A DNA stretch of 64,000 nt from Acidimicrobiia bacterium (GTDB lineage Bacteria > Actinomycetota > Acidimicrobiia > IMCC26256 > JAMXLJ01). The notes beneath the pieces are model-generated. The model searched no databases and had not been told where the DNA came from. It was given only the letters and a program-made list of their open reading frames with translations. Shown piece after piece: positions 45,201-58,655 of this stretch (the stretch's first letter is position 1; the number at the start of each line of letters is the position of its first letter). The stretch is taken from the NCBI GenBank assembly GCA_036558745.1, contig DATBEZ010000031.1, positions 23,454 through 87,453 on the forward strand, given 5' to 3'. The translations under genes and the position numbers were made by a program.

Positions 45201-46239
45201 TCGTCTCCGCGTCCTGCTTCACCGGGACGACGCGACACTGCGGGCAGTACCCGACGCTGCCGAAGCCGTTGTCGCCGACGCCGCCGATGCGCGAGATCAG
45301 ACCGGGCGCGTGGTTGTAGGCGAAGTCCTCGGTCTGCGGATCGTTGCTGTTGCGCTCGAAGTTCCAGCCCGAGATGTCGTTCGGGTACCCGTTGCCGTCG
45401 TTGTCGACGTGCAGGCCCGAGCGACAGGTGCGCACCCGGCCGCCGGCGATGCGGCAGTCGCCGAACACCGCGATCAGGTCCTCGGGTGAGAGGTACGGCG
45501 TCAGCACGCCACCGACGTGCACCGAGTGCAGGTACGGGTGCGTCCCACCCGCGACACACGACCGCGTGGTTCCTTCCGCGCGAGTGACGAACGGCGCGAC
45601 GCCGGGCGCGCAGGGCGGATTGACGCGCGGGTCCTGCGCCCAGTCGGCGATGTCGAAGCGTCCGTCGTGGTTCAGGTCGTACGTGCCCGCGTCGTGGCCG
45701 TCGGCGCGCTCCGGGTACGGGAGCTCGCCCGCGTTCAGCCAGACGTTGTCGAGCCCGTCCTTGATCCCGTCGCTCGAGTAATTCACGCCACCTTCGATGT
45801 AGGCGACGAGCACGTCGTGGCCGAGGTTGCCCTGCGTCCACGCGCCAGGGAGGTTCATGCCGGCCGCGTGCTGCGGGTCCTTCGCGAGCGGCGCGAAGCA
45901 CGGCAGACCCTGGTCCGGGCGGGGCAGCGTCGCCAGGCCGGTGGCGGGGTCGATGCACGGTCCCGTGAGCGGGCCGTAGAGGCCCCAGTTGCTCGAGTCG
46001 CTGCCACCGCAGCCGGGATCGTTCGCCGACTGGCAGTGGGTGTAGCCGGGATCGTTCGGTTGGCCGGTCGCCACCGTCGACTGGTCGACTTCGCCGCCGC
46101 CTCCCGTGCTCCGCCCAGGCGTCCGCTGCATCTCCTGGGCGGCCGTCGCGGCGGGGATCGTCACCCCGGCGACCAGCGCGGTCGCGACCGCGACGACGGC
46201 GGCCGTGCGGCGCGCTGGCGTGAAGCGACCCGTACGCAT
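42262..46239 (-). CDS. secreted S8 (subtilisin-like) peptidase domain fused to FG-GAP/beta-propeller-like repeats
   Basis: 1325 aa from ATG 46239 (GGAGGGGGAG RBS). The signal peptide is TAAVVAVATALVAGVTIPAATAAQE. S8-like blocks are HVDNDGNGYPNDISGWNF, NHAPGLISRIGG and SFEGGSTSAATP. A repeated motif occurs as LVYAWRPDGSSVPGFPV, LYVWDAHGRRLPGFPV, LYAWRPDGTPVPGWPV and VHAYRADGSEASGFPK. Confidence 0.8.
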   Translation of the reverse strand: MRTGRFTPARRTAAVVAVATALVAGVTIPAATAAQEMQRTPGRSTGGGGEVDQSTVATGQPNDPGYTHCQSANDPGCGGSDSSNWGLYGPLTGPCIDPATGLATLPRPDQGLPCFAPLAKDPQHAAGMNLPGAWTQGNLGHDVLVAYIEGGVNYSSDGIKDGLDNVWLNAGELPYPERADGHDAGTYDLNHDGRFDIADWAQDPRVNPPCAPGVAPFVTRAEGTTRSCVAGGTHPYLHSVHVGGVLTPYLSPEDLIAVFGDCRIAGGRVRTCRSGLHVDNDGNGYPNDISGWNFERNSNDPQTEDFAYNHAPGLISRIGGVGDNGFGSVGYCPQCRVVPVKQDAETIGRSDRFAEAILYATDIGAKAISAVVVNDAYSSIDQAAVDYAWSRGVAMSFDSNDFDSMDHTNGMYFDHVVPGNSLTVDNDGGPGNDARWYRARSNVTSYGTHNVFSFEGGSTSAATPTGAAALAMVASAGLEARDRHVIPGPLDPDEIKQVLMDTASTVDPTQAPPGTTPQWPGNPGSHTDATHTAWSTQYGYGRPDLGAATAMVLAGRIPPRAVLTGPRWYDYVDPVQTPRLDVTGQVARSSVGSGGSAHYVLEWALGADPADSAFHTVASGTVGRGQDRDARAVARRLGTIDLRQVPASFYDHAPSTTLQPDGAEQYTMTIRLRVVDANGTKAEDRRAIHLRHDPTLSPGFPKTVQRADGGPPAAADLEGRHELDVIDATNDGLVYAWRPDGSSVPGFPVRSDRLADIDPANPQNLRAPAYREPIFRNASDPLGGGVAVGDLFRDGRLEVAATSTNGDLYVWDAHGRRLPGFPVHTDPSRWSLPVPTPAAPESHSRLPQRGNWSPPVLADLEGTGHLDLLMSAFDGRLYAWRPDGTPVPGWPVEIKLPDATRAALGTAYIRDPKLVFPAGVADVLHTGRPQVFVSSFESGGNRSYLYGIWPDGNDHPGGPFLPGWPATVPALQGTYDQSIDFVGEGNAAPVFVDIAGATRIVTASVFGFPLVLNGNGTTFENLDPTCAGAACTSPAQYRVPDGLTLEITGMGGAGDLDGDGHPEYVASQLGLTSLTTALGQAGTALLPQAYEKAWTLATGARVAGFPARQDGFTFFTSPVVGNVDGSAGRAAIEGNDNYFVHAYRADGSEASGFPKYTGGWELAAGLLYDPHLDGHLHYLQTTREGFVFDWTTTGDATRNDAWWRYRHDERNTGDTRADTRRPAVLADLHVDDGVLRWHAPGDDGVVGTAAAYTFVWSSSRNGPRGLLSPPVPAIAGTPQELPLPAGLPRHGPVWVTAWSRDDAGNLSAPAVACIRGCSTSTRPAT

Positions 46240-46390
46240 CCCGGCTCCCCCTCCCGCCGGTATCCCCCGGGCCGGCGGGATCCCATGTGTAGCCCAGCCC
46301 ACTGCCGGGCGTCACCCTGCGCGGCCCCCGGGTCACGACCACGGAACGTGATGTATTGACCGCCACACGTCTGGTCGTCACACTGCCGCC

Positions 46391-46744
46391 ATGACGGCGA
46401 TGCTCGAACGGCCGGTCGGGTCACCGGCGCAGGTTGCGGTGGAACGCCGGCGCGAGGGTGGTGCGTGCCACCTCACCATCACCGGCGAGATCGACGCGAC
46501 GACCGCGCTGCTCGTCGCCGACGGCCTGGCCCGGGCCCTCGACTCCGGTGCGGCGCGCGTCTACGTCGAGCTCGCGGGTGTGACGTTCTGTGACGCGTCG
46601 GGACTCGGCCTGCTGATCGACGCGCGTCGCGAGGCGCGTCAACGCGGTCTCAGGCTCGTGCTCGTCGCACCGGCCGCACCCGTGCGCCGTCTGCTCGATC
46701 TCACCGAGCTCGATGCGCGCTTCGTCATCAACGCGGCGGTGTGA
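46391..46744 (+). CDS. STAS-domain protein (anti-sigma-factor antagonist, SpoIIAA-like)
   Basis: 117 aa: [19 protein letters not shown]...[24 protein letters not shown]...[17 protein letters not shown], the canonical STAS pattern including the DxSG serine. Confidence 0.8.
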
Positions 46745-46898
46745 AGCAACCGTCGCCCACGAGCGGAAGCTGACGGGCTCCCTCCGCGCCTTTCAGGACG
46801 TTCGTCGCAACTCTCGTCGTTCAGGTTCAGCACGCGCCGCGCGCTGCCGAGCTTCGACGGACCAACGGCCTTGCACGGCCGCGTCCCGAGGAGACCCG

Positions 46899-48029
46899 AT
46901 GAGCATCAGCGCCTTGACCCGTCGCACTGCCGGCCGCGAGCTGCTGAGCTCACCCGCTGTCGTGCGCGCCGCCCTCGACAGCGTGCAGACGAACGTGTTC
47001 GTCGCCGACCTCGAGCTCAACCTCGTCTACATGAACCGTCGTGCGACGGAGACCGTACAGACCATCGAGGCAGAGATCCGCTCCTCGTTCCATGTGGCGT
47101 GGAACGACCTCGTCGGCGGGACCATCCACCGCTTCCACCGCGACCCCGCGCGCGTCGAGCGCATCCTCCGCGACCCGTCGAGCTTTCCGCACCACGCGAC
47201 GTTCGACTTCGGCGCGGTGACGCTGCGCACGACGATCAACGGCATCTTCGACGACGCGGGCACACTGCACGGCTACGTCGTCGCGTGGGACGACGTCACC
47301 GCGCAGCAGCGGGTCGAGGCGCACGCGCAGGAGCTCGCCCAGCAGCTCGAGGGCGCGTCGACCCGCCTGACCGACGTCGCGGTGCAGCTCGGCGCGACCG
47401 CCGAGGAGGCCGCGAGCCAGGCGGAGACGGTGTCGGCCGGTGCGGAGGAGATGACCGCGAGCGTCCACGAGATCGCCCAGACGACCGCGACCGCGGCGCA
47501 GGTCGCGTCGGACGCGGTCTCGGTCGCCGACAAGACGACCACCACGGTCGAGGAGCTCGGACGTTCGAGCCAGGAGGTCTCCGAGGTCGTGAACCTCATC
47601 ACCTCGATCGCCGAGCAGACGAACCTGCTGGCGCTCAACGCGACGATCGAGGCTGCGCGCGCGGGCGAGTCGGGCAAGGGCTTCGCGGTGGTGGCGAACG
47701 AGGTCAAGGAGCTCGCGAACGAGACCGCGCGTGCGACGGAGGACATCAGCCGCAAGATCGAGGCGATCCAGGCCGCGTCGGGCGAAGCCGTCGGCGCGAT
47801 CGGCCGGATCGCCGAGATCATCGCTCAGATCCACGACCTCCAGACGACGGTCGCAGGCGCGGTCGAGGAGCAGGCGGCGACCACGAACGAGATCACGTCG
47901 AACATCACCGGCGTCGCGACCGCCGCCGGTGAGACATCGAGCGCCACCACGACGATCCAGGACGCCGCGGCCGAGCTGTCGGAGCGCGCGTCCGAGCTGA
48001 ACCGGATCGTCAGCCACACCGACGACTGA
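46899..48029 (+). CDS. soluble methyl-accepting chemotaxis protein (PAS-like sensor + MCP signalling domain)
   Basis: 376 aa from ATG 46899 (GAGGAG 6 nt upstream). There are no TM helices. It has an N-terminal PAS-like fold and the highly conserved MCP hairpin tip [38 protein letters not shown]. Confidence 0.85.
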
Positions 48030-48113: not shown

Positions 48114-49211
48114 TTACAGAGGAGTCGGGTTCTTCCGGCAGGAGCTGTTCGGAAGGCCCGGACCGGCAGGCGCCATGGGCAGCGGCGTGAAGCCGTAGGC
48201 GAGCAGCGTGAAGCCCACCTGCGGGTTGCCGTTGCACATCCAGCCGTTGTGCGTCGAGTCCACGCCCGCGAAGTTGATCGCGGCCGCGAGGGACTTGTCG
48301 GTCTGCTTGATCACGTTGTACACGTACCGGCGCCCGAAGAAGGTGCCGTTGTTGATCGTCGTCGTGGACGGCGCCACGCCGTTGATGCTGCCGAGCACCG
48401 CACCACCGCGGATGTCGGGCGAGATGCCGTTGCTCTGGGCGGTCCAGTTCGCGAAGGAGTAGGGCAGGATCGCGTTGGTCTTGTCACCCGCGGCAACCTG
48501 GTTCCCGCTGTTCTCCTCGATCCGGATGGGGTGGACGTTGCACGACGAGTCGTCGAGGACGCCCTGCTGCGCGCTCGAGAGACCGAGGATCTTGGTCTCG
48601 AAGAACGACAGCGTGCCCGAGCCCGTCTGGGGCAGGTAGCGCACGATCGCACCGTTGGCGCCGCCGACCTGGTTCCAGTTCGTGATCGTCGGGTTCCCAC
48701 CGTTGGTGCAGAGGTAGATGCCCTGCAGCTGCGCGAGGGTCAGGTTCGACGGGGCGTTCCCCGTGTAGTGGGCCCAGCTCACCGCGTCGATCGCGTACGC
48801 GTAGAAGTCGATCGTGGACGGGTCGGTACCGCTCCGGCCACGCGACGAGCGCGCAAGGTCGACGTTGCAGTTCGTGCCGTCACCGGTCAGGGCGCTGATG
48901 CCGGCGCTGGAGCCGTTCGGGGGCAGGTTGCTCGGGTTGTTGTAGTTGAACGCGCCACAGTTGTTGTCACCAGGGACCGCGAAGTTGCCCGGCGGGATCA
49001 CCGGCGGGACGTTGGTGACCGTGTCGTGGTTCGCGTTCACCGTGCTCGACGAATGGGTGTTGTAGTAGCTCGCCAGGTTGCCCATGACCCCGACGGTGGT
49101 GTCGGAGCCGACGAGCGCAAGGGACTGCGGTTGCGGTCCACACCCGGCGAGCAGCATTGGCATCGCCACCGCCGCAACGCCGAGCGCGGCGAACCGAAAC
49201 AGTTTGTGCAA
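48114..49211 (-). CDS. PstS-family (PBP_like_2) substrate-binding lipoprotein, Cys-rich
   Basis: ORF 48114..49244 trimmed to TTG 49211 because AAGGAGAGGG lies 3 nt upstream. The signal with lipobox is HKLFRFAALGVAAVAMPMLLAGC. PBP motifs are GSDTT, GSSAGISAL...VDLARSSR and LPQTGSGT. Several Cys residues lie in the mature part. Confidence 0.75.
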   Translation of the reverse strand: MHKLFRFAALGVAAVAMPMLLAGCGPQPQSLALVGSDTTVGVMGNLASYYNTHSSSTVNANHDTVTNVPPVIPPGNFAVPGDNNCGAFNYNNPSNLPPNGSSAGISALTGDGTNCNVDLARSSRGRSGTDPSTIDFYAYAIDAVSWAHYTGNAPSNLTLAQLQGIYLCTNGGNPTITNWNQVGGANGAIVRYLPQTGSGTLSFFETKILGLSSAQQGVLDDSSCNVHPIRIEENSGNQVAAGDKTNAILPYSFANWTAQSNGISPDIRGGAVLGSINGVAPSTTTINNGTFFGRRYVYNVIKQTDKSLAAAINFAGVDSTHNGWMCNGNPQVGFTLLAYGFTPLPMAPAGPGLPNSSCRKNPTPL

Positions 49212-49416
49212 GAGCCCTCTCCTTGAGTCAACGGGCTTCACCACCCGCCGGAACGACGCCTTCGGGCGTCACGCGTGTTCTAAACCGGCGAGATGAAACG
49301 CAGACCACCGACGGCGGAGCGGTACTTGAACAACAGACCTCGACTTGTGTGCATCGCGACCTGCACGGACACGCGCGCGTCGCACGAGTGTGCACGAGCG
49401 CGTGCGCGCGGTCGCG

Positions 49417-50382
49417 TCACAGGGTCGACGGCAGGACCGGTGTGAGGCTGTCGAACACGAGCAATAGCAACAATGCGAGCACGGGGGTCGTCACGAGCCA
49501 CGTGTTCCACCGACCCCATCGCCGGTACGCCCACGCCGCGCCGACTGCAGCGACCAGCAACAGCTCGGTCCACAGCACGAGCGACAACATGGTCGAGCCG
49601 TCACTCTGTAAGCCCAACTCCTGGTCGCTCACCTCGTTGGGTCGCCCGATCGGTGTCAGCTTGGGCGTGCCGCGCAACGTGGCCCGCACGACGAGTCGAC
49701 GCTCGGCGAAGAGCTCGGGTGACGACGTCACCAACGCCAGCCGGTTGCCCGAGCCCTTGGCCAACACGTCGGTGCCCTTGCGGTTCGTCGTGTGCACGTC
49801 GTCGACGACGTATGTGAACTTCCCCTGTCCGGTCGACGCGCGGATGAGATCGCCCTCGCGGAGCCTGCCGACGTTGCGGAAGGGTCCCCCGTACGCGACG
49901 CGCCGGCCCATGATGACGACGTTGCCCCGCTGCCCGGGCAACGGTGACGTCCGAAGGTGGCCCGGGCCCTGCTTCAGCAACGCGCCGTTCGTCCCCTCGA
50001 CCACCGCCGCGTGCAGGTGCAGGCGCGGGATCTCGAGCATCGCGACCGGTGTTCCTGGCATGATGCGGCCGCCGATCGGGGCGATGCCCGCGGAGAGGTT
50101 GCTGCCAATGATCTTGGTGAGGGTGCGTTGCGTGCGCCCGTACTCGAGCCGGCTGGCGCCGACGAGGTAGAGGAAGTACGCGAGGACCACGAGCCCGAAG
50201 ATCGTGAGGCCGAGCCCGAGCACGCGCATGACGTCGTGCTTGGCCGTCCGCTGTCGCTCACGACGCTCGTGACGCGGCCCCTTCGGCGCCGGTCCCGGTG
50301 GGGGCTCGGGCTCGACGATCTCGGGCGGGATCTCGGTTGTTCCGGGGGGCAGGGGCGCCCAGACCGCGTCGAGATCGGTCAC
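49417..50382 (-). CDS. class-E-sortase-like membrane protein lacking the catalytic His and Cys (putative pseudo-sortase)
   Basis: 321 aa from GTG 50382 (GTGA overlap with the upstream stop). It has an N-terminal TM, then LEIPRLHLHAAVVEGT...GPGHL...GNVVIMGRRVAYGGPF...RLALVTSSPELFAERRLVVRA, colinear with sortase blocks. R replaces the active-site H, S replaces C, and there is no cysteine anywhere. Two extra C-terminal TM helices are present. Confidence 0.75.
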   Translation of the reverse strand: MTDLDAVWAPLPPGTTEIPPEIVEPEPPPGPAPKGPRHERRERQRTAKHDVMRVLGLGLTIFGLVVLAYFLYLVGASRLEYGRTQRTLTKIIGSNLSAGIAPIGGRIMPGTPVAMLEIPRLHLHAAVVEGTNGALLKQGPGHLRTSPLPGQRGNVVIMGRRVAYGGPFRNVGRLREGDLIRASTGQGKFTYVVDDVHTTNRKGTDVLAKGSGNRLALVTSSPELFAERRLVVRATLRGTPKLTPIGRPNEVSDQELGLQSDGSTMLSLVLWTELLLVAAVGAAWAYRRWGRWNTWLVTTPVLALLLLLVFDSLTPVLPSTL

Positions 50383-52445
50383 GGACCCGACCCGTTCGCG
50401 CTCGCGGCCGTCGCCGGCGCAGGGGCGCGCTGCTTCTTGCCACGCGACCGCCACGTCAGCACGGGACCACCGATCAGCGCGACGAGGCCGAGCGCGAAGA
50501 GGCCGGGCAGCAGCAGTTGATGGTCGCCACCGAGGAAGTCGCGCAGCGCGCCCACGATGAAGTTGGGCGACGGCTTGCGCGCGCTCGACGCGAGCGCGGC
50601 ACCGTGTGTCGAGCCGTCCACGGAGATCGACGCCGCCGACGCGAGCGAGGAGCTGTCACCGTCACCACCGCCCGACGCAGCGCCGAGGTCCGACGACGCG
50701 CCCGCGTCGCCGGAACCCTGGTCCACGGGCGCGCCCGCGTCGTTCGTCTGCGGCGGCGCGGCGACGTTGCCGACCTGGTTGACGACCGCGTCGCGCGCCT
50801 TGGCGTCCTGGGCGACGAGATCGGCGGGCAACGGGACGTAGCCGGGCGGGAGCACGCCGGCCCGTTGCCCCGGGCCCGACACGTCGTCGAGGAACTGCCC
50901 GATCTTCGCGGCCTTGGTCGGTGAGATCCCGCCGGTCGGCAGCATCGCGTAGTCGACCTTCACGAGCGGGTACACGCCCGGCGCGGTGACGTCGGGGAAC
51001 TTCGTGATCTTGTCGGGGTTGGTCGTCATCTTCGTGTACGCGGCGGCGAGGTTCGGCAGGTCGGCGGGGACGCCGGACGCACCCGGTGGCGCGTTGGCCG
51101 GCACGAGCTTGGCGGTGGGGATCGCGAAGGAGCGCGCCGTGACCGCGTCGAGCACGCCGAAGACGCCGTCGACGCCGGCGGTGGGTGAGATGCCGTCGCC
51201 GGGCGGCAGGAACTGGAACAGGCGGCGCACGTTGGTCAGCGTGCTCGTCAGCGGCTGGTACGCGCCCTGTGCGTCGGGGTCCCGGGCCTCGAACACGTCG
51301 GTCGGGTAGGTGACGCCCTTCCAGAACGAGTCCGGCTGCGCGCTCGGATCCTTGCCGTCGAGGAAGGCGCGAGCCCGCGCGTCACGCTGCAGCCAGCTCG
51401 TGAGCACGAAGGCATCGGCGTTGGGCTCGGCCCGCAGGAGTGGCGCCTCCGCGTTCGAGGGCCAGTGATGACCGGGGTTGAGCGCGAGGAATTCGGGGTC
51501 GTTGAAGATGTTGTTCCCGGAGCCGAGCGGGAACTGCCATCCGGCAATGAGCTCGGCGACGAGACGCGGCGTGAGCGTCATGTCGCCGATGCGTTGACCG
51601 GTCGTCGGGTCGGTCGCGTTGAACCCGATCACCACGCCGGTGACGTCGATCGGCGCGTAGGTGTACGGACGGTTCGTGCCCTTGAGCTGGTCGGCCGAGG
51701 CCGGCATCGACGTGATCGCCACGTCGCTGTTTCCCTGCAGGAAGTTGCTGCGCGCCTCCGGTGAGCCCTGGTTCGTGTAGTCGATCGACAACGGCTTGGC
51801 GCCCGTGCAGGTGATCGCGCCCCACGCGAGCAACGCCGTGGCGGCCGAGTCCTCGCCGATCGCGGCGACGTCGGGCGTCTTCACCTGCGGGCAGTCCCGC
51901 GTGCTCGGCGCGAACCGCAGGGGCGTCGTCACCGCGCTCACGGGCAGGCCGTTGGGTGGCGGGACCGTGCCGTCGGCCTCGTACGCGAGGAGCGAGCACG
52001 GGTTCTGAGCGGAGCAGTCGAGGTCGGGCAGCTGCAGCGAGGGGCGAACTTCGATGAATGCCGTGCCTGTGCCGTCGGGTTGGGTCCGCGCCGCGAACAC
52101 ACCCGACCCGTTCGCGTCGTTCGACCCGTTGGGATAGGGGAACACGTCGAAGCAGTCGTTGAGGGACTTGGGGTTGGCCTTGCACTGCACGACCGTCACC
52201 GTGAACGCGCCGGTGACGTCGGTCGGGTCGAAGCCCGTCCAGTGCACCTCGACGACCTGGTCGCTGAGCCCCGTCGCGGGCGTCGCCGTCAACGTGCGCG
52301 GCCCGGCGGCGGACGCGCGCGCCGGACGTTGCGCGAACCCCGCGAGGAGGCCGGCGAGCACGATGACGCACACAAGAAGCGCGCGTCGCGAATTCGGTCG
52401 CGGCACCGCGTTCGGTCGCGAAGCGGCACGCCCACCTCCCGGCAT
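50379..52445 (-). CDS. surface protein: neocarzinostatin-like Ig domain + PstS-like periplasmic-binding domain + low-complexity linker + C-terminal TM anchor
   Basis: The signal peptide is RRALLVCVIVLAGLLAGFAQRPARASA. The NCS-like block is LTATPATGLSDQVVEVHWTGFDP...VTVVQCKANP...CSLLAYEADG. The PBP block is IDYTNQGSPEARSNFLQGNSDVAITSMP. The tail is an A/G/S/D-rich linker, then LLLPGLFALGLVALIGGPVLTW RSRGKKQR. The start is ATG 52445 or ATG 52502, and neither has an RBS. Confidence 0.7.
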   Translation of the reverse strand: MPGGGRAASRPNAVPRPNSRRALLVCVIVLAGLLAGFAQRPARASAAGPRTLTATPATGLSDQVVEVHWTGFDPTDVTGAFTVTVVQCKANPKSLNDCFDVFPYPNGSNDANGSGVFAARTQPDGTGTAFIEVRPSLQLPDLDCSAQNPCSLLAYEADGTVPPPNGLPVSAVTTPLRFAPSTRDCPQVKTPDVAAIGEDSAATALLAWGAITCTGAKPLSIDYTNQGSPEARSNFLQGNSDVAITSMPASADQLKGTNRPYTYAPIDVTGVVIGFNATDPTTGQRIGDMTLTPRLVAELIAGWQFPLGSGNNIFNDPEFLALNPGHHWPSNAEAPLLRAEPNADAFVLTSWLQRDARARAFLDGKDPSAQPDSFWKGVTYPTDVFEARDPDAQGAYQPLTSTLTNVRRLFQFLPPGDGISPTAGVDGVFGVLDAVTARSFAIPTAKLVPANAPPGASGVPADLPNLAAAYTKMTTNPDKITKFPDVTAPGVYPLVKVDYAMLPTGGISPTKAAKIGQFLDDVSGPGQRAGVLPPGYVPLPADLVAQDAKARDAVVNQVGNVAAPPQTNDAGAPVDQGSGDAGASSDLGAASGGGDGDSSSLASAASISVDGSTHGAALASSARKPSPNFIVGALRDFLGGDHQLLLPGLFALGLVALIGGPVLTWRSRGKKQRAPAPATAASANGSGP

Positions 52446-52613
52446 GTGAAAGAAGTAACACGACCGCGCGAGTCGATCGCGTGGCCGCCGTTCTGGATTC
52501 ATCTGTAGTTCGCGGTTGCGTCACATCGGTTCTTTACAGTCCGGCCGTCGCACGCCGCATGAGCGTCGTCGACGCGCGCGTCGTCTGTGCGCGGAGTGGG
52601 GAGGCAGGACTAC

Positions 52614-53594
52614 ATGTCGTCGACGGACGTGATCGACGTCGCCGAGGACAAGATCGACATCCGGGTCACCCGCTCGAAGGGCGACCGCGTGTACCGCGGT
52701 GTCGTCCGTTCGGCCGGGAGCTTCACGTTCGTCGTGATGGTCCTGATCGGCACGTTCCTCCTGATCCAGGCCTGGCCCGCGCTGCGCGACGCGCGGTGGA
52801 GCTTCCTCACCGAGGCGAAGTGGAACCCAGACGGTCATCAGTTCGGCATCGCCTCGCTCATCATGTTGACGTTCGAGATCGCGGTCGTCGCGCTCGCCAT
52901 CGCCGTGCCCATCGCTGTTGGCGCCGCGCTCTACATCACCGAGTACTCGCCGCGGGTCCTGCGACGCCCGCTCACGTCGCTCATCGATCTCCTCGCCGCG
53001 GTCCCGAGCATCATCTACGGGCTCTGGGGCCGGGCGTTCCTCCAACCACGCCTGATCCCGCTGAGCGAGTGGCTCGGCACCCACCTCGCGTTCATCCCGA
53101 TCTTCAAGGTCACCGACAAGAACACCAACTTCGCGGCGTCGACGTTCATCGCCGGCGTCGTCGTGTCGCTCATGACCGTCCCGCTCGTGACCGCGATCAT
53201 CCGCGAGGTCTTCTCCCAGGCACCGCCCGGGGAGAAGGAAGGTGCACTCGCGCTGGGCGGGACGAAGTGGGGGATGATCCGCACCGTCGTGCTGCCCTTC
53301 GGCCGTGGCGGCATCATCGGCGGCTCGATGCTCGGTCTGGGACGCGCGCTGGGCGAGACCATCGCGGTCGCCCTCATCATCTCGCCCATCTACTCCAAGA
53401 GCGTCCACATCCTGAACGGCGGCGGGAACTCGATCGCGGCACAGATCGCGAACAGCTTCAGCGAGTCGTCACCGTTCGGGAAGAACGCGCTCATGGCCGC
53501 GGGGCTCGCCCTGTTCGCGGTGACGTTGATCGTGAACGCGCTCGCGTCGGCCGTGGTCGCGCGGTCGCGCTCGGGCCAGGCGACGGAGATCTGA
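52614..53594 (+). CDS. pstC: phosphate ABC transporter permease PstC
   Basis: ATG 52614 has GGGGAGG upstream. The EAA-loop region reads SQAPPGEKEGALALGGTKWGMIRTVVLPFGRGGIIGG. Six TM helices. First gene of a pstC-pstA-pstB run. Confidence 0.9.
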   Translation: MSSTDVIDVAEDKIDIRVTRSKGDRVYRGVVRSAGSFTFVVMVLIGTFLLIQAWPALRDARWSFLTEAKWNPDGHQFGIASLIMLTFEIAVVALAIAVPIAVGAALYITEYSPRVLRRPLTSLIDLLAAVPSIIYGLWGRAFLQPRLIPLSEWLGTHLAFIPIFKVTDKNTNFAASTFIAGVVVSLMTVPLVTAIIREVFSQAPPGEKEGALALGGTKWGMIRTVVLPFGRGGIIGGSMLGLGRALGETIAVALIISPIYSKSVHILNGGGNSIAAQIANSFSESSPFGKNALMAAGLALFAVTLIVNALASAVVARSRSGQATEI

Positions 53595-53595
53595 C

Positions 53596-54732
53596 GTGAC
53601 CGCCACGCTCGAGCCGCCCGTCGCCGACGTCACCGAGAAACTGGTCCCGGAAGCGCCGCTCCGACTGCGCCGCTTCGACCAGGCCGACATCGGCCGCCTC
53701 GCGGGTGCCGCGGTCGCCGCGTTCTGCCTCGACTGGCTGGTCTACGAGCGGCTCACGCCGCTGAGCGGCGGTCTCGGGTTCTGGGTGTGCTGGTACGTCG
53801 CGTTCCTCGCGATCTACGGGTTCATGGTGCGCGACGCGCGAGGGTCGGTCGCGGCGAGGGACCGCGTCGCCGCCGTGGTGATGACGACCGCGGGGCTCGG
53901 GCTCGTCGTGCCGCTGTCGTTCATCCTGGGCTACGTCGTCTTCAAGGGCTACCACGCGCTCCGGTTCCACTTCCTCTGGGAGAACCAGGCCGAGGTCGGG
54001 CCGCTCAGCAAGGCCACCGCGGGCGGCGCCGGGCACGCGATCGTCGGAACCTTGGAGCAGGTCGGCCTCGCGACGCTCATCTGCGTACCTCTCGGCGTGC
54101 TGAGCGCGTTCTTCCTCAACGAGGTCGGGGGCCGGCTGGCCCGCCCGCTGCGCACCGTCGTCGACGCGATGAGCGCGGTGCCCTCCATCCTCTGCGGCCT
54201 GTTCGTCTACGCGGCGTGGATCATCGCGTTCCACCAGGAGTTCTCCGGGTTCGCCGCCGCACTCGCGTTGTCGGTGCTCATGCTGCCCACGGTGACGCGC
54301 GCGACCGAGGTCGTGCTCCGGCTCGTGCCGGGCGGTTTGCGCGAGGGCGCGCTGGCCCTCGGCGGGGAGGAACGGCGCGTCGCGCGCATGGTCGTGCTGC
54401 CGACCGCGCGCATCGGCATCGTCACGGGCGTCATCCTCGGCATCGCCCGCGTCGTCGGCGAGACCGCACCGCTGTTCTTCACCGCGTTCGGCTCGAACTC
54501 GATGAACTGGAACCCCTTCAGCGGCCCGCAATCGTCGCTGACGCTCTTCACCTGGACGTACATCCGTTCGTCGCAGGCCGCCGACATCGCGCGCGCGTGG
54601 ACGGCCGCGTTCGTCCTCACCGTCCTGGTGCTGATCCTCTTCGTGATCGCCCGGATCATCGGCGGGCGGCGGATCGGCGAGATCGGGTTCCTCCGGCGCG
54701 TGATCCAGAACAGAAGGAGTGCGTCCGAATGA
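53596..54732 (+). CDS. pstA: phosphate ABC transporter permease PstA
   Basis: 378 aa. The loop LVPGGLREGALALGGEERRVARMVVLPTARIGIVTG and the ending VGETAPLFFTAFG are typical of PstA. Confidence 0.9.
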   Translation: MTATLEPPVADVTEKLVPEAPLRLRRFDQADIGRLAGAAVAAFCLDWLVYERLTPLSGGLGFWVCWYVAFLAIYGFMVRDARGSVAARDRVAAVVMTTAGLGLVVPLSFILGYVVFKGYHALRFHFLWENQAEVGPLSKATAGGAGHAIVGTLEQVGLATLICVPLGVLSAFFLNEVGGRLARPLRTVVDAMSAVPSILCGLFVYAAWIIAFHQEFSGFAAALALSVLMLPTVTRATEVVLRLVPGGLREGALALGGEERRVARMVVLPTARIGIVTGVILGIARVVGETAPLFFTAFGSNSMNWNPFSGPQSSLTLFTWTYIRSSQAADIARAWTAAFVLTVLVLILFVIARIIGGRRIGEIGFLRRVIQNRRSASE

Positions 54733-55562
54733 CGACGGTCGCGACTGGCTTCGACGGCCAGACCCAGGTCATCGACCTCACGCGCGCGCCGGCCACGATG
54801 CAGGCCCGGAACGTGAGCGCGTGGTTCGGGAACCACAAGGTGCTCGACCGGGTCTCGATCGACATCCCCGCACAGCAGGTGACCGCGCTCATCGGCCCGT
54901 CGGGGTGTGGGAAGTCGACATTCCTGCGCATCCTCAACCGCATGCACGAGCTGGTGCCGAGCGCGGCGCTCGCGGGCACGGTCGAGCTCGACGGCGAGGA
55001 CATCTACCGGGGCCCGAAGTCGGCGACCGAGACCCGGCGCGAGATCGGGATGGTGTTCCAGAAGCCCAACCCGTTCCCCGCGATGACGATCGCCGACAAC
55101 GTCCTGTCTGGGCTCCGCCTCTCGGGTCTGCGACCACGGGGCCGCAAGTCGGACGCGATCGTCGAGGCGTGCCTCGAGCGCGCCGGTCTGTGGAACGAGG
55201 TCAAGAACCGGCTGCACGCACCGGGTGGCGCGCTGTCCGGTGGTCAGCAGCAGCGCCTGTGCATCGCGCGCGCCCTCGCGGTGCAACCGCGCGTGCTCCT
55301 CATGGACGAACCGTGCTCCGCGCTCGATCCGACGTCGACCAACCGCATCGAGCAGACGATCGCGGACATCGCCGAGGACGTGACGATCGTGATCGTCACC
55401 CACAACATGCAGCAGGCCCAGCGGGTGTCGCACCAGTGCGCCTTCTTCCTCGCGAGCGACCAGACACCGGGCGTGATCGTCGAGGCCGGCCCCACCCAGA
55501 AGATCTTCGAAGCGGCGGACGATCCACGGACTCGTGACTACGCGCACGGGCGCTTCGGCTAG
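54729..55562 (+). CDS. pstB: phosphate ABC transporter ATP-binding protein PstB
   Basis: 277 aa from ATG 54729 (ATGA overlap, AGGAG upstream): GPSGCGKSTFLR, IGMVFQKPNPFP, LSGGQQQRLCIARALA, LLMDEPCSALDP, IVIVTHNMQQAQRVS. Confidence 0.95.
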   Translation: MTTVATGFDGQTQVIDLTRAPATMQARNVSAWFGNHKVLDRVSIDIPAQQVTALIGPSGCGKSTFLRILNRMHELVPSAALAGTVELDGEDIYRGPKSATETRREIGMVFQKPNPFPAMTIADNVLSGLRLSGLRPRGRKSDAIVEACLERAGLWNEVKNRLHAPGGALSGGQQQRLCIARALAVQPRVLLMDEPCSALDPTSTNRIEQTIADIAEDVTIVIVTHNMQQAQRVSHQCAFFLASDQTPGVIVEAGPTQKIFEAADDPRTRDYAHGRFG

Positions 55563-55580
55563 TCCGGGAGGACACACACC

Positions 55581-57125
55581 ATGAGACGAGTGGCCGTCGC
55601 GACGATCGTCGGCGTGATCGCCGCCGCGAGCCTGATCGGGGGACCGGTCCCGAACGCGGTGGCGACCGGTGCCGCGATCAAGGGCGCGGGCTCGACGTGG
55701 AGCCAGATCGCGATCCGCCAATGGACCCAGGACGTGGCCAAGAACGGGCTGTCCGTGTTCTACGGCGGCGGCGGTTCGTCGGCCGGCCGCGAGTTCTACA
55801 TGGACGCGACCGTCGACTTCGCGGTGTCCGAGGTCCCGTTCCAGCCCGTCAGCTACGACCGGCTCGGCAACAAGCTGCCCGACGAGATCAGCCGCGCCGC
55901 GCAGCGTCCGTACGCGTACATGCCGATCGTCGCGGGCGGGACGTCGTTCATGTACCACCTCGACGTCAACGGCAGGCGGATCACCGACCTCCATCTGTCG
56001 GGCCGCACGATCGCGAAGATCTTCACCGGCAAGATCACGAACTGGAACGACCCTGCGATCACGGCCGACGACGGTCGTCATTTCCCGTCGTTGCCGATCC
56101 ATCCGATCGTGCGCTCCGACGGCTCGGGGACCTCGGCCCAGTTCACCCTCTACATGCTCAAGATGTTCCCCGACATCTGGAACCCTTTCTGCACCAGGTA
56201 CACGAACCTTCCGGCTCCATGCCCGCTCCAGTCGTTGTATCCGTACTTCCCCGGGAGCCAGGCCCAGAACGGCTCCGACGGCGTGTCCGCGTTCGTCGCC
56301 GCGCCCTACAACAACGGCGCCATCACCTACGTCGAGTACGGCTACGCCCTCGCGCAGCGCTTCCCGGTCGTGTCGGTGGAGAACCAGGCCGGCTACTTCC
56401 GCCAGCCGACGGCCGAGAACGTCGCCATCGCGCTGACGAAGGCCCGCTTGAATCCGGACCGCACCCAGGTGCTCGACGACGTGTACACGAACCCCGATCC
56501 GCGGGCGTACCCGATCTCGAGCTACAGCTACATGATCGTGCCGATCAGCGACGCGGCACCCATGAACCCGGCGAAGGGCGCGACGCTCGGGCAGTTCATC
56601 CTCTACTTCCTCTGCACGGGGCAGCAGAAGGCGAAACCGCTCGGCTACTCGCCGCTGCCGGCGAATCTCGTCGGGTTCGGCTTCGACGCGGAGGGCCGCA
56701 TACCCGGCGCACCCAAACCACCACCGGTCGACGCGGCCCACTGTGCGAACCCGACGATCACCGGTGCATTCGGCTTCGGCAGCGTCCCGGACCCGCCCGC
56801 CAGCGACAAGGCGGGCGCGGTGCGTCCCGGCATCACCGGCACGAACGGGAGCGGGTCGAGCGCCGACAGCGGGTCGGGCGCGGGTGCGGCCGACGCGAAC
56901 CTGCAGGCGGCCGACGCGGGCGCGAACGCGAACGCAGCCGGCGCCGCCGACGGCAGCACGTCCGGCACCGGGGGGAGCACCAACTCGCTGCAGGCGACGC
57001 CAGTCGCCACGAAGAACCCGGGCGACGACGTCCCGCTCGGCATCTACATCGCGGTCGCGCTGGTGGTCGTGCTCGCGCTGTTCGTGCCGCCCGGCCTCTA
57101 CCTCCTGCTCCGCAAGCGCGAGTGA
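55581..57125 (+). CDS. pstS: PstS-family phosphate-binding protein with C-terminal linker and TM anchor
   Basis: 514 aa with a signal peptide but no lipobox Cys. PstS motifs are GAGSTWSQ, YGGGGSSAGREF..VDFAVSEVP and VRSDGSGTSAQFT. The C-terminus is an A/G/S/D/N-rich stretch, then PLGIYIAVALVVVLALFVPPGLYLLL RKRE. Confidence 0.85.
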   Translation: MRRVAVATIVGVIAAASLIGGPVPNAVATGAAIKGAGSTWSQIAIRQWTQDVAKNGLSVFYGGGGSSAGREFYMDATVDFAVSEVPFQPVSYDRLGNKLPDEISRAAQRPYAYMPIVAGGTSFMYHLDVNGRRITDLHLSGRTIAKIFTGKITNWNDPAITADDGRHFPSLPIHPIVRSDGSGTSAQFTLYMLKMFPDIWNPFCTRYTNLPAPCPLQSLYPYFPGSQAQNGSDGVSAFVAAPYNNGAITYVEYGYALAQRFPVVSVENQAGYFRQPTAENVAIALTKARLNPDRTQVLDDVYTNPDPRAYPISSYSYMIVPISDAAPMNPAKGATLGQFILYFLCTGQQKAKPLGYSPLPANLVGFGFDAEGRIPGAPKPPPVDAAHCANPTITGAFGFGSVPDPPASDKAGAVRPGITGTNGSGSSADSGSGAGAADANLQAADAGANANAAGAADGSTSGTGGSTNSLQATPVATKNPGDDVPLGIYIAVALVVVLALFVPPGLYLLLRKRE

Positions 57126-57874: not shown

Positions 57875-57974
57875 TGCGACCACCTTCCGAGTCCGTCGCT
57901 CTTCCCGGACCTCCATGATCGGCCCGCGCGCGCGGTCGCACCATGGGTCGCGCGACCCATTTCGCAGGGGTAGC

Positions 57975-58454
57975 TCAGGACGCGGGCCGGTAGGGCGCGA
58001 CCACCTCGCTGCGCCACGTCGCCGGGTCGGGGCTCGCCTGCGGATCGCTCAGGTAGCGCTCGAAGGGTTCGCCGTTCGCAGTTGCGCCCTGCGCTTCGAT
58101 CCACGCGTGCAGCGCGTCGTACGCGGGTGCGATCGCGTCGTACGGTCCGACGTGCACGGTCACCGCGGCGGGACCCTCGGGGAGGTCGGACGGCTCCACG
58201 TCACCCTCACCCGCGACGGGCGTGATGGCGGGGTAGCCCGCCTCGACCTCCAGGCGGCCGTCGTCCAGGCGGTGGTACCGCGCGAACGGCGGACCGGCGG
58301 GCCCCGCGCCCCATCGCGTGAGGTAGCGCGCGACGTCGGCGAACGCGTTCCCCAACCATGCGGGCAGCTCGTCGGCCGTCACCGTGCCGAACACGACGGC
58401 GGTCTGCTCCTCGGAGAGCGTGCGCGCCTCGATCCCGTACGTCTGCGTCGTCAT
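57975..58454 (-). CDS. GyrI-like small-molecule-binding domain protein
   Basis: 159 aa: ...GPPFARYH...VEAGYP...VTVHVGPYD.I..AYDALHAWIEAQG....GEPFERYLSDP, the characteristic duplicated GyrI-like/SOUL pattern. Confidence 0.8.
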   Translation of the reverse strand: MTTQTYGIEARTLSEEQTAVVFGTVTADELPAWLGNAFADVARYLTRWGAGPAGPPFARYHRLDDGRLEVEAGYPAITPVAGEGDVEPSDLPEGPAAVTVHVGPYDAIAPAYDALHAWIEAQGATANGEPFERYLSDPQASPDPATWRSEVVAPYRPAS

Positions 58455-58602
58455 GGCGTGATTCTCCGGATCGGGGCGCGGCGACGACAGGGACGAACGT
58501 CACGTGTCATCCGGCGCCACTCGTGTGACGAATCAGCACCGTCCGGGCGCCGTGGCGCACGATCTGGAATGCTTCGCGCCGGGAACGGGCGACGCGCGAC
58601 CC

Positions 58603-58646
58603 GAACCGAAGCCCGACGTGAACCGAAGCGCGGCGTGAACCGAGGA
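58603..58646 (+). repeat. about 2.6 tandem copies of a 17-bp direct repeat (GAACCGAAGCNNGNCGT) ending in the RBS of the sulfotransferase gene
   Basis: Read directly. Copies start at 58603, 58620 and 58637. Copies 1 and 2 match at 15 of 17 positions. The third decays into GAGGAGGAGGA just before GTG 58656. Confidence 0.8.
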
Positions 58647-58655
58647 GGAGGAACG

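Follow-up and report, generated by a model that had tools for sequence, protein, structure and literature searches.

Sortases are the textbook cysteine transpeptidases, and to our knowledge genome annotation takes every match to the PF04203 profile as an enzyme. The class E sortases compared in this work are SrtE1 and SrtE2 of S. coelicolor, SrtE of S. avermitilis (PDB 5go5 and 5go6), SrtF of C. diphtheriae (5uus) and SrtE of T. fusca. The hallmark of the class is a Tyr residue, Tyr229 of SrtE1, which biases the enzyme toward LAXTG (PMC5148588); its position was located through the sequence of the Y229A primer given in the same paper. Further, in self-occluded sortases a segment of the protein's own polypeptide lies in the sorting-signal groove, as with the class C 'lid' (DPW/DPY), the linker tripeptide AQA of SrtE1 (5cuw; PMC5148588) and, according to the title of a PDB entry matched by Foldseek, a self-derived tripeptide in the groove of L. 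rhamnosus SrtA (7f87).

In this work, we analysed a window of 64,000 nucleotides (the whole stretch presented here, from an Acidimicrobiia bacterium), following a preliminary description of one gene within it, whose product is hereafter called dSrt. We report that dSrt keeps the sortase fold without the catalytic Cys and His, and that its relatives form a clade associated with genes for phosphate uptake. Literature searches on pseudo-sortases, inactive sortase homologues and a sortase-PstS link, with subscription journals outside their coverage, returned nothing relevant, and we found no paper describing this clade in the same body of literature.

Results

A genuine sortase domain in a predicted three-pass membrane protein

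The dSrt reading frame extends from a GTG start to a TGA stop (49417-49419, minus strand), and its 321-aa translation contains no Cys, as previously stated (Table 1). Its sortase domain is genuine, with a PF04203 score far above chance (81.7 bits against a cutoff of 26.6, E=4.9e-23) over aa 116-236 in the 321-aa numbering, the profile query having been a 345-aa version numbered +24; the TIGR01076 sortase_fam profile also matched (57 against a cutoff of 39.35). The AF2 model (mean pLDDT 88.4, pTM 0.79) resembled SrtD 4d70 with a TM-score of 0.85 and SrtE 5go6 with 0.78. By sequence profile and by fold, dSrt is thus a member of the sortase superfamily (Pfam PF04203 / MEROPS C60 fold), and the strings cited in the preliminary description, LEIPRL, GPGH, IMGRRVAYGGPF, LALVTSSPE and RRLVV, are all present.

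An N-in topology is predicted because a basic, Pro-rich region precedes TM1 (positive-inside rule). The two additional C-terminal TM helices that had been proposed were modelled with high confidence as TM2 (aa 263-288) and TM3 (aa 291-316, with an invariant Pro300), joined by the cytoplasmic loop RRWGRW; Pro300 and the Trp residues of this hairpin are strongly conserved across the family.

Table 1. Positions of dSrt, its sequence features and the neighbouring genes in the window.
Feature	Position	Strand	Basis or remark
dSrt, Cys-less sortase homologue, 321 aa	49417..50382	minus	GenBank HEY7134910.1, labelled 'class D sortase'
TM1, aa 52-76	50155..50229	minus	AF2 helix 46-98 and sequence; stalk runs on to ~aa 98
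Sortase beta-barrel domain, aa 112-240, extracytoplasmic	49663..50049	minus	PF04203 and Foldseek
His142-Leu143 of GPGH-L motif	49954..49959	minus	Alignment; Leu143 at class-E specificity Tyr (SrtE1 Tyr229)
Arg160 codon CGG, catalytic-His position	49903..49905	minus	Pairwise and profile alignments
Ser220 codon TCG, catalytic-Cys position	49723..49725	minus	Pairwise and profile alignments
Arg229 codon, retained active-site/substrate-binding Arg	49696..49698	minus	Alignments; covaries with tail Thr
C-terminal TM hairpin, TM2 and TM3	49435..49596	minus	AF2, conservation, TM1-TM3 covariation at 68-310
C-terminal tail L317-P318-S319-T320-L321-COOH	49420..49434	minus	Conservation, pLDDT 84-88; predicted outside membrane
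bigPBP, upstream partner, 707 aa	50379..52502	minus	Stop codon overlaps dSrt start (GTGA, 50379-50382)
PstS-family lipoprotein, downstream partner, 376 aa, LAGC lipobox	48114..49244	minus	Profile matches and synteny
pstC (52587-53594), pstA (53596-54732), pstB (54729-55562)	52587..55562	plus	Translations; transcribed divergently
PstS, 514 aa, HEY7134915.1	55581..57125	plus	Profile matches, sequence

Catalytic positions and class assignment

The register of the active site was set by phmmer against S. avermitilis SrtE 5go6, by a family profile built from 52 sequences and aligned to all PDB sortases, and by Foldseek matches of the AF2 model to SrtE and SrtD (TM range 0.78-0.85), and the three kinds of alignment were concordant: G-R160-R of dSrt lies opposite G-H-R, T-S220 opposite T-C, and R229 opposite the catalytic Arg. 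Consequently, Ser220 takes the place of the catalytic Cys (end of beta7, TLxTC motif) and Arg160 that of the catalytic His (beta4, G-H-R/T), in agreement with the two substitutions first read from the sequence, whereas the active-site Arg of beta8 is present as Arg229. No alternative His or nucleophile was placed at the catalytic positions by the pairwise, profile or fold alignments.

The earlier view that the protein is colinear with class E sortases stands in part. Class E is its best-scoring NCBIfam class, yet the score for NF033747 was 81.7 bits against a cutoff of 160, and the residue following GPGH in the beta3/beta4 loop is Leu143 instead of the class-E Tyr; throughout the family this position is Leu, Val or Arg, and Tyr in only 15 of 145 sequences. 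The class D profiles were likewise below their cutoffs (NF033746, 60.8 against 165; NF058671, 64.3 against 140). Public records name dSrt and its relatives 'class D sortase' or 'sortase A'. The departure from class E, the conserved LPxTL-COOH motif and the membership in pst operons are additions to the preliminary description.

A large clade with variable catalytic sites and conserved non-catalytic motifs

The dSrt architecture, namely TM1, a sortase domain, two C-terminal TM helices and an L-P-x-T/L-L-COOH tail, was found in at least 190 representatives, taken at 50% or 90% identity. The best 150 clusters at 50% identity all scored at least 286 bits, and almost all of their alignments reached the profile's C-terminus; ~2,400 sequences counted as close homologues with E below 1e-30. 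A second, word-indexed homologue search with a 145-sequence profile returned 46 proteins, too few for an alignment of the depth that DCA requires. A tally over 196 representatives gave Ser 131, Ala 43, Thr 8, Gly 6, Cys 4, Val 3 and Leu 1 at the Cys site, and Arg 151, His 36 and Lys 6 at the His site. The catalytic Cys is retained in only the 4 representatives counted above. Catalytically intact relatives that have an identical TM hairpin and LP tail were P0076, P0154, P0203 and P0217. The His of GPGH is present in 143/145 sequences of the family, and the LP tail is its most conserved motif (Pro318 in 144/145, Leu317 in 132/145). The size and conservation of the family imply purifying selection.

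One explanation, also raised in the preliminary description, is that dSrt is still an enzyme, a Ser (or Ser/Thr) transpeptidase or hydrolase acting through Ser220, with the base or acid supplied by His142 or by Arg160/Arg229. Indeed, no residue is more frequent than Ser at the nucleophile site (83% in the window's own subfamily), the set of His, Ser and Arg occurs together in 20 of the 196 representatives, almost all members have His142, and subfamily 1 has preserved the oxyanion/substrate-binding Arg229. However, Ala or Gly replaces the nucleophile in ~25% of the representatives (~27% with Val and Leu; Ala alone in 15% of the window's subfamily), and the residues flip repeatedly on the tree, with ~43 parsimony changes at the Cys site and ~28 at the His site on a crude UPGMA topology. 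Moreover, with Arg at the His position, the window's protein is left without a general base there. Ordinary class D/E sortases (GxGH) conserve His142 to the same degree although it plays no catalytic part in them, and homology puts this residue at the S3 subsite, beside SrtE1 Tyr229. Subfamily 2 is devoid of His, Cys and Arg together while its gene context is unchanged. Since the residues at both sites vary family-wide, serine chemistry is unlikely and we regard the family as one of pseudoenzymes, in which the catalytic sites vary while fold and non-catalytic motifs are conserved over 150 or more clusters at 50% identity; a Ser-dependent enzyme is a very improbable reading of dSrt itself. The hydroxyl of Ser220 might still have some role in the window's subfamily, e.g., hydrogen bonding, given the 83% conservation of Ser there. 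A Ser/Lys dyad was considered for the G-K-S variants and ruled out, as the same subfamily also has G-R-A with T-A.

The loss of the catalytic residues and the origin of the sequence from a metagenome-assembled genome could also point to a decaying relic, or to a sequencing or assembly artefact, without function. Against this stand full-length intact reading frames in more than 190 clusters with like substitutions, from independent assemblies as well as cultured strains, including Saccharothrix obliqua SC076 and S. carnea CGMCC 4.7097, together with the near-invariant non-catalytic motifs and a conserved translational coupling. An identical protein is deposited in GenBank under the accession given in Table 1, and its 90%-identity cluster has 11 members from JGI and Logan assemblies. 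The family conservation effectively refutes this explanation, and the Arg and Ser codons are not assembly errors.

Recurrent association with pst genes

The gene-context sample comprised 20 loci found with a single peptide pattern, so that the taxonomic picture is that of a sample; 21 informative loci were counted. In ~19 of these, pst genes and/or bigPBP adjoin dSrt, and a bigPBP homologue lies directly upstream in at least 17. The start/stop coupling to the NCS-PBP gene seen in the window (bigPBP, Table 1) recurs as a 4-bp overlap in at least 11 loci, and both the gene order and the overlap are found across distant Actinomycetota. The genes pstC, pstA and pstS adjoin dSrt in Acidimicrobiia, Saccharothrix, Frankiaceae and Promicromonosporaceae, the pstC and pstA being orthologous to those of the window, and pstA-pstS-bigPBP-dSrt are chained by 4-bp overlaps in loci L015, L018 and L022. 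The 376-aa lipoprotein is syntenic in loci L001, L002, L004, L007, L010 and L020. Hence, the conserved cluster reads pstCA-pstS-bigPBP-dSrt(-lipoPBP), with pstB nearby where seen, and dSrt is a conserved operon member with pstSCAB, which places it as a proposed Pst accessory component rather than in an established family of such components. No promoter or terminator signal above background emerged from scans of the operon's surroundings. The intergenic stretch at 52,490-52,540 contains repeats that are candidate sites for PhoP, and the operon may belong to the Pho regulon. The Cys-retaining relatives of the same architecture P0076 and P0217 lie outside pst contexts; thus, the loss of catalysis coincides with recruitment to pst.

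A different context suggests that dSrt might be a cell-wall tether or sensor, whose dead groove would take up lipid II or a peptidoglycan stem peptide, the second substrate of sortases, in place of a protein anchor, and would thereby link Pst to the wall or detect wall precursors. The S. carnea locus (L016) has no recognisable bigPBP or pst genes and adjoins genes for WxL-type surface proteins; there and in L003, the neighbours encode wall-associated proteins with WxL, WxLIP_PGBD and Big_3_5 domains. Furthermore, P0066 and P0157 have a PASTA domain, a muropeptide/lipid-II-binding module, between TM1 and the sortase domain. These fusions are nevertheless rare (2 of ~196), and the association seen most often and conserved best is the one with anchored PstS-type proteins, which renders a wall tether unlikely. 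P0095 looked like an NCS-PBP-sortase fusion but was rejected as Rosetta-stone evidence: no TM segment connects its extracytoplasmic PBP portion to the N-in TM1, so that a frameshift or an error of gene calling is the probable cause.

Anchors of the partner binding proteins

The protein bigPBP begins with a signal/TM segment, which is followed by a neocarzinostatin-like beta-sandwich and then by a domain of the PstS fold whose phosphate loop is altered; a disordered linker leads from there to a C-terminal anchor. The altered loop reads RAE-x-NAD instead of R-x-D/x-G-S-G-T, which suggests that bigPBP may bind something different from orthophosphate. The anchor is conserved as F-x-GG-x3-L-x-L-P-h-L-L ... 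G ... A ... GP ... RR (Leu665, Pro666 and Gly672 in 34/39 sequences each, Ala675 in 36/39), a degree of conservation that is unusual for a simple TM tether. The PstS of the window is anchored by a C-terminal TM helix and a basic tail (…FVPPGLYLLLRKRE) and has no lipobox. In these operons, both proteins end in a module resembling a sorting signal, made up of linker, TM helix and basic tail.

Neither LPXTG nor LAXTG was found in PstS, bigPBP or the lipoprotein. What bigPBP has is a conserved L-L-P-h-L-L where the TM helix begins, and some subfamily-2 homologues carry L-[GA]-x-T upstream. LLP-type strings are common in high-GC proteomes rich in Leu and Pro, which counts against the adaptor model proposed below. 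The strings 'LQATP' of PstS and 'GLPNSSC' of the lipoprotein were rejected as sorting motifs for inconsistent conservation or a location inside folded regions.

The C-terminal tail and the substrate groove

The best MI-APC partner of T320 was Arg229 (z 6.2), followed by V231 and M158, and the groove set holds 6 of the top 10 long-range partners of T320. The homologues of V231 and M158 in SrtE1, I331 and A249, touch the substrate (PMC5148588). A tail Thr was paired with Arg229 124 times, and a tail Leu never. As a control, position 290 of the cytoplasmic loop, which is unable to touch the groove, showed an enrichment equal to that of T320, and the existence of two subfamilies confounds the tail-groove covariation. 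Subfamily 1 keeps Arg229, and the tails of subfamily 2 are LPNLL, without Thr. The covariation of T320 with groove residues is therefore consistent with contact, and is not proof of it. Catalytically intact relatives also have an LP tail, LPAN[IY]; for this reason the LP motif may have a general structural role in capping the TM hairpin instead of mimicking a substrate.

Since the tail resembles LPXTG through P1, dSrt could alternatively work together with an active housekeeping sortase, as its decoy, its regulator or its substrate. For instance, cleavage of the tail between T and L could link the membrane protein to the wall, or the dead domain could associate with an active paralogue and modulate it. 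Pseudoenzymes are often regulators of active paralogues, and active relatives with the same architecture are found in related organisms. However, the motif lies at the very C-terminus and ends one residue past Thr, with no TM helix or basic tail after it; P1' is Leu and not Gly, and the subfamily 2 tails are Thr-free. In addition, no active sortase gene was found in the window or in the syntenic loci. We hold such a role to be improbable.

Discussion

Considering these findings together, we propose, with a probability of roughly 0.55, that dSrt is a non-catalytic adaptor for anchored binding proteins, in which the LPxTL tail of the protein itself fills the old substrate groove. The near-invariance of the TM hairpin, the LP tail and GPGH next to variable catalytic sites, and the recurrent link to the same neighbours, also favour the scaffold or chaperone role suggested initially. 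The ancestor would have been a class-E-like housekeeping sortase already bearing the C-terminal TM hairpin, which was recruited into actinobacterial operons for high-affinity phosphate uptake (pst) and lost its transpeptidase chemistry through changes of Cys to Ser, Ala or Gly and of His to Arg or Lys. The resulting three-pass membrane pseudo-sortase probably cleaves nothing now. Its ancestral sorting-signal groove and conserved TM helices are probably reused as a non-covalent receptor or adaptor, which would bind or position the C-terminal anchor of bigPBP (L-L-P-h-L-L, at the outer membrane face) at the PstCAB transporter, with the C-terminal anchor of PstS as a possible second client. The extracytoplasmic L-P-x-T-L-COOH tail would be a built-in pseudo-substrate in the groove, and might act either as a structural plug or as a latch that can be displaced.

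A more tentative reading, which we consider possible but doubtful, is that the clade consists of non-covalent 'sorting-signal receptors' with a groove held by LPxTL, in which the groove or the hairpin captures the CWSS-like anchors of PstS-type proteins. If this were true, dSrt would be a previously unrecognised accessory subunit of the Pst phosphate importers of Actinomycetota, and the first pseudoenzyme branch of sortases with a defined cellular role.

Such a clade would correct a systematic misannotation that bears on sortase censuses, on predictions of surface-protein anchoring and on lists of inhibitor targets, and it would add sortases to the protease folds that yield pseudoenzyme adaptors. 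It would also draw attention to an unstudied accessory layer of the actinomycetotal Pst system, in which a PstS anchored by a C-terminal TM helix and an NCS-PstS fusion whose anion site is altered occur alongside a dead sortase. With the tail in place as proposed, dSrt would be a natural model of an LPxT peptide held in a sortase groove without turnover, and may aid the engineering of sortase-based binders; the two cultured Saccharothrix carriers make it testable.

Regarding known systems, dSrt shares with the class E sortases its best sequence and profile matches, an N-terminal TM helix with a helical stalk, the same beta-barrel and the colinear motifs GxGH…PG..GN…G(H)R…Y/FG.PF…L.L.T(C).P…R. 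Unlike them, it is devoid of the catalytic Cys and His, has Leu for Tyr, reaches half of the NCBIfam cutoff, has no LAXTG substrate nearby, and is encoded in a pst operon and not in a housekeeping locus. The class D enzyme SrtD of C. perfringens (4d70) is its best structural match, and both are without the class-E Tyr, whereas dSrt differs from it in the missing catalytic Cys/His, the actinobacterial lineage, and the additional TM helices and tail.

The inactive rhomboids, iRhoms and Derlins, are membrane-embedded proteins of a protease fold that have lost the nucleophile, kept client-binding features and taken adaptor or trafficking roles. Their likeness to dSrt is one of analogy only, between unrelated folds and organisms, client binding by dSrt being a proposal. 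Finally, the self-occluded sortases set a precedent for the dSrt tail, in that a segment of their own polypeptide lies in the sorting-signal groove (PMC5148588; PDB titles). In those active enzymes the segment is N-terminal to the domain, whereas the candidate ligand of dSrt, whose docking is a prediction, is the extreme C-terminus after the TM hairpin of a dead enzyme, and, unlike the segments of the self-occluded sortases, it resembles the substrate motif itself.

Results

A sortase fold without a catalytic Cys or His

The Cys-less sortase homologue of the window (dSrt) matches the Pfam Sortase domain PF04203 over its full length (E=4.9e-23, 81.7 bits vs a cutoff of 26.6), and its translation contains every motif quoted in the preliminary description and, as stated there, no cysteine. 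The replacement of the catalytic His by Arg and of the catalytic Cys by Ser, also reported there, was recovered both in a phmmer alignment to S. avermitilis SrtE (5go6) and in a residue-by-residue alignment of a 52-sequence family profile with PDB sortases (5uus, 5go5/5go6, 4d70, 8t28): G-R160-R aligns with G-H-R, T-S220 with T-C and R229 with the catalytic Arg, and in the profile no catalytic position is taken by another His or nucleophile. The AF2 model built from the family alignment (pLDDT 88.4, pTM 0.79) resembles SrtD 4d70 (TM 0.85) and SrtE 5go6 (TM 0.78, 34% identity), and locates the two extra C-terminal helices at residues 263-288 and 291-316; that the stop codon of the upstream gene overlaps dSrt at GTGA was likewise confirmed. 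dSrt is a three-pass membrane protein of sortase fold without nucleophile or general acid/base. From its basic N-terminus, RRWGRW loop and three AF2 helices, the sortase domain is predicted to lie outside the membrane, as are the last 5-11 residues.

The likeness to class E proposed earlier holds for the motifs, which are colinear with SrtE, but not for class membership, as dSrt falls below the class E cutoff (81.7 bits vs 160, NF033747) and also below that of class D (60.8 bits vs 165). Furthermore, the class E specificity Tyr (Tyr229 of SrtE1, the S. coelicolor enzyme), identified from the Y229A primer as the residue after GxGH (PMC5148588), is Leu143 in dSrt, and Tyr occurs in only 15/145 family members.

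Family size and catalytic-site variation

A word-indexed search retrieved 81 homologues, and a profile search run exhaustively over 1.84 billion cluster representatives returned 2,441 matches below 1e-30, the best 150 of which all have scores of 286 bits or more and, with few exceptions, reach the C-terminal end of the profile. Public annotations of the family read 'class D sortase', 'sortase A' or 'LPXTG-site transpeptidase', and the identical GenBank protein (HEY7134910.1) is titled 'MAG TPA: class D sortase [Acidimicrobiia bacterium]'. Among 196 non-redundant members, the substitutions of dSrt recur (Arg in 151, Ser in 131), although both sites vary: the Cys site otherwise holds Ala (43), Thr (8), Gly (6), Cys (4), Val (3) or Leu (1), the His site also holds His (36) or Lys (6), and roughly 70% keep the catalytic Arg. 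A crude UPGMA tree implies about 43 changes of residue at the Cys site and about 28 at the His site; within the subfamily of dSrt (n=123), the Cys site is Ser in 83% and Ala in 15%.

Conservation in a 145-sequence alignment is far higher outside the catalytic sites than at them, including the GPGH His (143/145), Pro300 of TM3 and the Trp residues on either side of the TM hairpin. The most conserved feature is the extreme C-terminus, with Leu317 (132/145, Phe in 11 more) and Pro318 (144/145) followed by Ser/Ala/Gly/Asn, then Thr (97) or Leu (27), Leu (103) and the stop codon. Variable catalytic sites in an otherwise conserved protein argue against both sequencing error and the Ser-based chemistry offered in the preliminary description; we consider residual Ser chemistry very improbable and a relic or artefact negligible. 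In the aligned sequences, such a pattern marks a pseudoenzyme that purifying selection maintains, and we hold dSrt to be non-catalytic with a probability of roughly 0.85-0.9.

Two subfamilies were distinguished. Subfamily 1, which includes dSrt, has G-R-R at the His site, T-S-x-P at the Cys site, R-R-L-V-V at the Arg site and the tail LP[SAG]TL; subfamily 2 has G-[RK]-[SA], T-[SA]-x-G plus an insertion, no Arg (V-Y-V) and the tail LPN[LV]x. Four class-E-like relatives (P0076, P0154, P0203, P0217; loci L024-L027) keep the class-E Tyr, His, Cys and Arg (motifs GPGHY, GHR, TC, R), share the TM hairpin of dSrt and end in LPAN[IY], so the architecture is older than the loss of catalysis; active sortases that combine an L-L-P-A-N-[IY]-COOH end with a pair of C-terminal TM helices appear to be undescribed. 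The two intact relatives with readable contigs have enoyl-CoA hydratase or ccm genes instead of pst genes as neighbours, and loss of catalysis coincides with a changed genomic neighbourhood. As for domain composition, members P0066 and P0157 carry a PASTA domain between TM1 and the sortase domain, and P0140 an N-terminal GT2 glycosyltransferase; an apparent NCS-PBP-sortase fusion (P0095), whose parts are not separated by any TM segment, probably reflects an artefactual frameshift.

Association with pst genes

Features of the window around dSrt
Feature	Position	Strand	Remarks
Secreted protein	42262-46302	-	1346 aa; split Peptidase_S8 (subtilase) domain and FG-GAP repeats
STAS-domain protein	46391-46744	+	anti-sigma-factor-antagonist type
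MCP signalling-domain protein	46713-48029	+	no obvious TM region; directly after the STAS-domain gene
PstS-family lipoprotein	48114-49244	-	downstream of dSrt
dSrt	49417-50382	-	GTG start; TGA stop at 49417-49419; 321 aa
bigPBP	50379-52502	-	707 aa, NCS-like and PstS-fold; upstream of dSrt
GTTC-type direct repeats	52485-52545		bigPBP-pstC intergenic region
pstC, pstA, pstB		+	divergent from bigPBP-dSrt
PstS, C-terminally TM-anchored	55581-57125	+	with pstC, pstA, pstB
Sulfotransferase-domain protein	57915-59282	+	455 aa; C-terminal Sulfotransfer_4 domain (206 bits); downstream of pstS

Three distant homologues found by exact-sequence look-up share this layout: each sortase gene has a 4-bp overlap with the gene of a PBP-like protein (661-878 aa), and pst genes and a PBP_like_2 gene are its neighbours. 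Across 20 loci from GTDB species genomes (including Acidimicrobiia, Saccharothrix obliqua, S. carnea, Umezawaea, Frankiaceae and Promicromonosporaceae), a bigPBP homologue lies directly upstream of dSrt in most, and pstC, pstA and pstS adjoin the modules; pstA-pstS-bigPBP-dSrt are chained by 4-bp overlaps in several (L015, L018, L022), and in L019 dSrt directly follows pstS. The exceptions are the marginal match L023 and the S. carnea locus L016, whose neighbours are PBP_like_2, Big_3_5+WxL, WxLIP_PGBD and an ABC ATPase. No locus of the sample has Cys or His at the dSrt catalytic sites. dSrt is thus a conserved member of pst operons, in translational coupling with an anchored protein derived from PstS, and it probably works with Pst and the bigPBP module. 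No second sortase is encoded within the window; that dSrt serves as decoy or substrate of an active sortase is most unlikely.

Some subfamily-2 loci have Big_3_5+WxL, WxLIP_PGBD and fn3 surface-protein genes flanking dSrt (L016 1-5900; L003 9000-16400), in clusters resembling the WxL/Csc-type cell-surface-complex clusters of Firmicutes. A lipid-II or peptidoglycan tether or sensor would accord with these WxL-type neighbours and with the rare PASTA fusions (P0066, P0157), and is judged unlikely. In L001/L005 (5900-8004; long-read MAG MFD05442.bin.2.274), the bigPBP orthologue is split over several frames (multiple tblastn pieces) upstream of an intact dSrt, reflecting either homopolymer/frameshift assembly errors or a genuine pseudogene. 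The GTTC-type repeats of the window show ~11-nt phasing (GTTCGCGGTTG CGTCACATCG GTTCTTTACAG) and resemble actinobacterial PhoP 'PHO boxes'; a promoter scan of this intergenic region gave no sigma-70-like promoter. The STAS and MCP genes (46391-48029) lie directly downstream of the pst-associated module.

Anchored partner proteins

bigPBP has 41 detectable homologues, several flagged PF00960 Neocarzinostatin and PF12849. Its AF2 model (pLDDT 80.6) comprises an N-terminal TM/signal helix, a neocarzinostatin-like beta-sandwich (aa 70-195), with invariant Cys107/117/163/169/232, fused to a PstS-fold domain, a disordered linker (aa 585-651) and a C-terminal TM helix (aa 664-687). The PstS-fold domain matches M. 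tuberculosis PstS-1/PstS-3 and E. coli PstS (from the PstSCAB cryo-EM structure) at TM 0.76-0.81 and 16-18% identity. Where PstS-1 has the phosphate loop R-S-D-G-S-G-D-T, bigPBP reads R-A-E-P-N-A-D-A, so the ligand may be other than orthophosphate; the altered loop (R-A-E-x-N-A-D) is conserved across the family.

The bigPBP anchor is unusually conserved (F656, G658-G659, L663, L665 and P666 in 34/39 each, h-L-L, G672 in 34/39, A675 in 36/39, G679-P680, then Arg-rich); at the outer membrane face it reads L-L-P-h-L-L, and dSrt L-L-P-x-T/L-L. The PstS of these operons (the window and L003, L011, L013-L015, L018-L020, L022) is not a lipoprotein; it is tethered by a C-terminal TM helix that follows a long low-complexity linker, bears a conserved (V/L)P(P/A) motif close to the cytoplasmic side and runs into an Arg/Lys tail. 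With C-terminal TM anchors and basic tails, bigPBP and PstS share the layout of a tripartite cell-wall sorting signal (CWSS); LPXTG/LAXTG is absent from both anchors in these operons, and L-[GA]-x-T occurs ~10 residues before the TM helix in 6/10 subfamily-2 bigPBPs. The downstream PstS-family lipoprotein (also in L001, L002, L004) ends in a conserved G-L-P-N/S-S-[ST]-C-R-K/L-N-P-x-P-L, whose LPxS[ST] string is probably part of a folded, disulfide-bonded domain, not a sorting motif.

The C-terminal tail and the groove

The dSrt tail is modelled at pLDDT 84-88, unusual for a free terminus, and its position 4 varies together with the 'catalytic' Arg: the pair (Thr, Arg) was counted 124 times, (Leu, Arg) 0 and (Leu, Thr/Ala/Val/Leu/Pro) 32 (Fisher p = 4e-19, uncorrected), or 29, 0 and 7 (Leu, non-Arg) by 45%-identity clusters. 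The top MI-APC partner of Thr320 is Arg229 (z 6.2, rank 22 of ~33,000 pairs), followed by Val231 and Met158. The SrtE1 homologues of these three residues, R329, I331 and A249, are in contact with the sorting signal (PMC5148588). Six of the ten top long-range partners of Thr320 belong to a 16-residue groove set (hypergeometric p=5e-6), with the control cytoplasmic-loop position 290 scoring equally, so that part of the covariation, at least, stems from the subfamily split and not from contact. Docking of the tail in the groove, as covariation and the tail pLDDT suggest, is a well-motivated proposal, at odds slightly short of even.

Discussion

We classify the dSrt clade as a pseudoenzyme branch of the sortase superfamily that is distinctive in architecture and has taken on a new, conserved genomic role. 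Full-text searches, with most subscription journals outside their scope, gave no relevant literature on pseudo-sortases, inactive or Cys-less sortase homologues, or a sortase-PstS link. The finding is robust, concerns a widespread, misannotated clade and lends itself to direct tests in cultured Saccharothrix; the mechanism is one that we infer. As a non-catalytic adaptor or receptor, dSrt would use the ancestral sorting-signal groove and the conserved TM hairpin to bind the CWSS-like anchor of bigPBP, and perhaps that of PstS, or to position it, at the PstCAB translocon; such anchor capture is tentative, with the odds about two to one against. Its own LPxTL tail would act as an intramolecular pseudo-substrate, as either plug or latch, in keeping with other self-derived peptides in sortase grooves, namely the AQA tripeptide of SrtE1 (PMC5148588), the peptide in PDB 7f87 and the lids of class C sortases.
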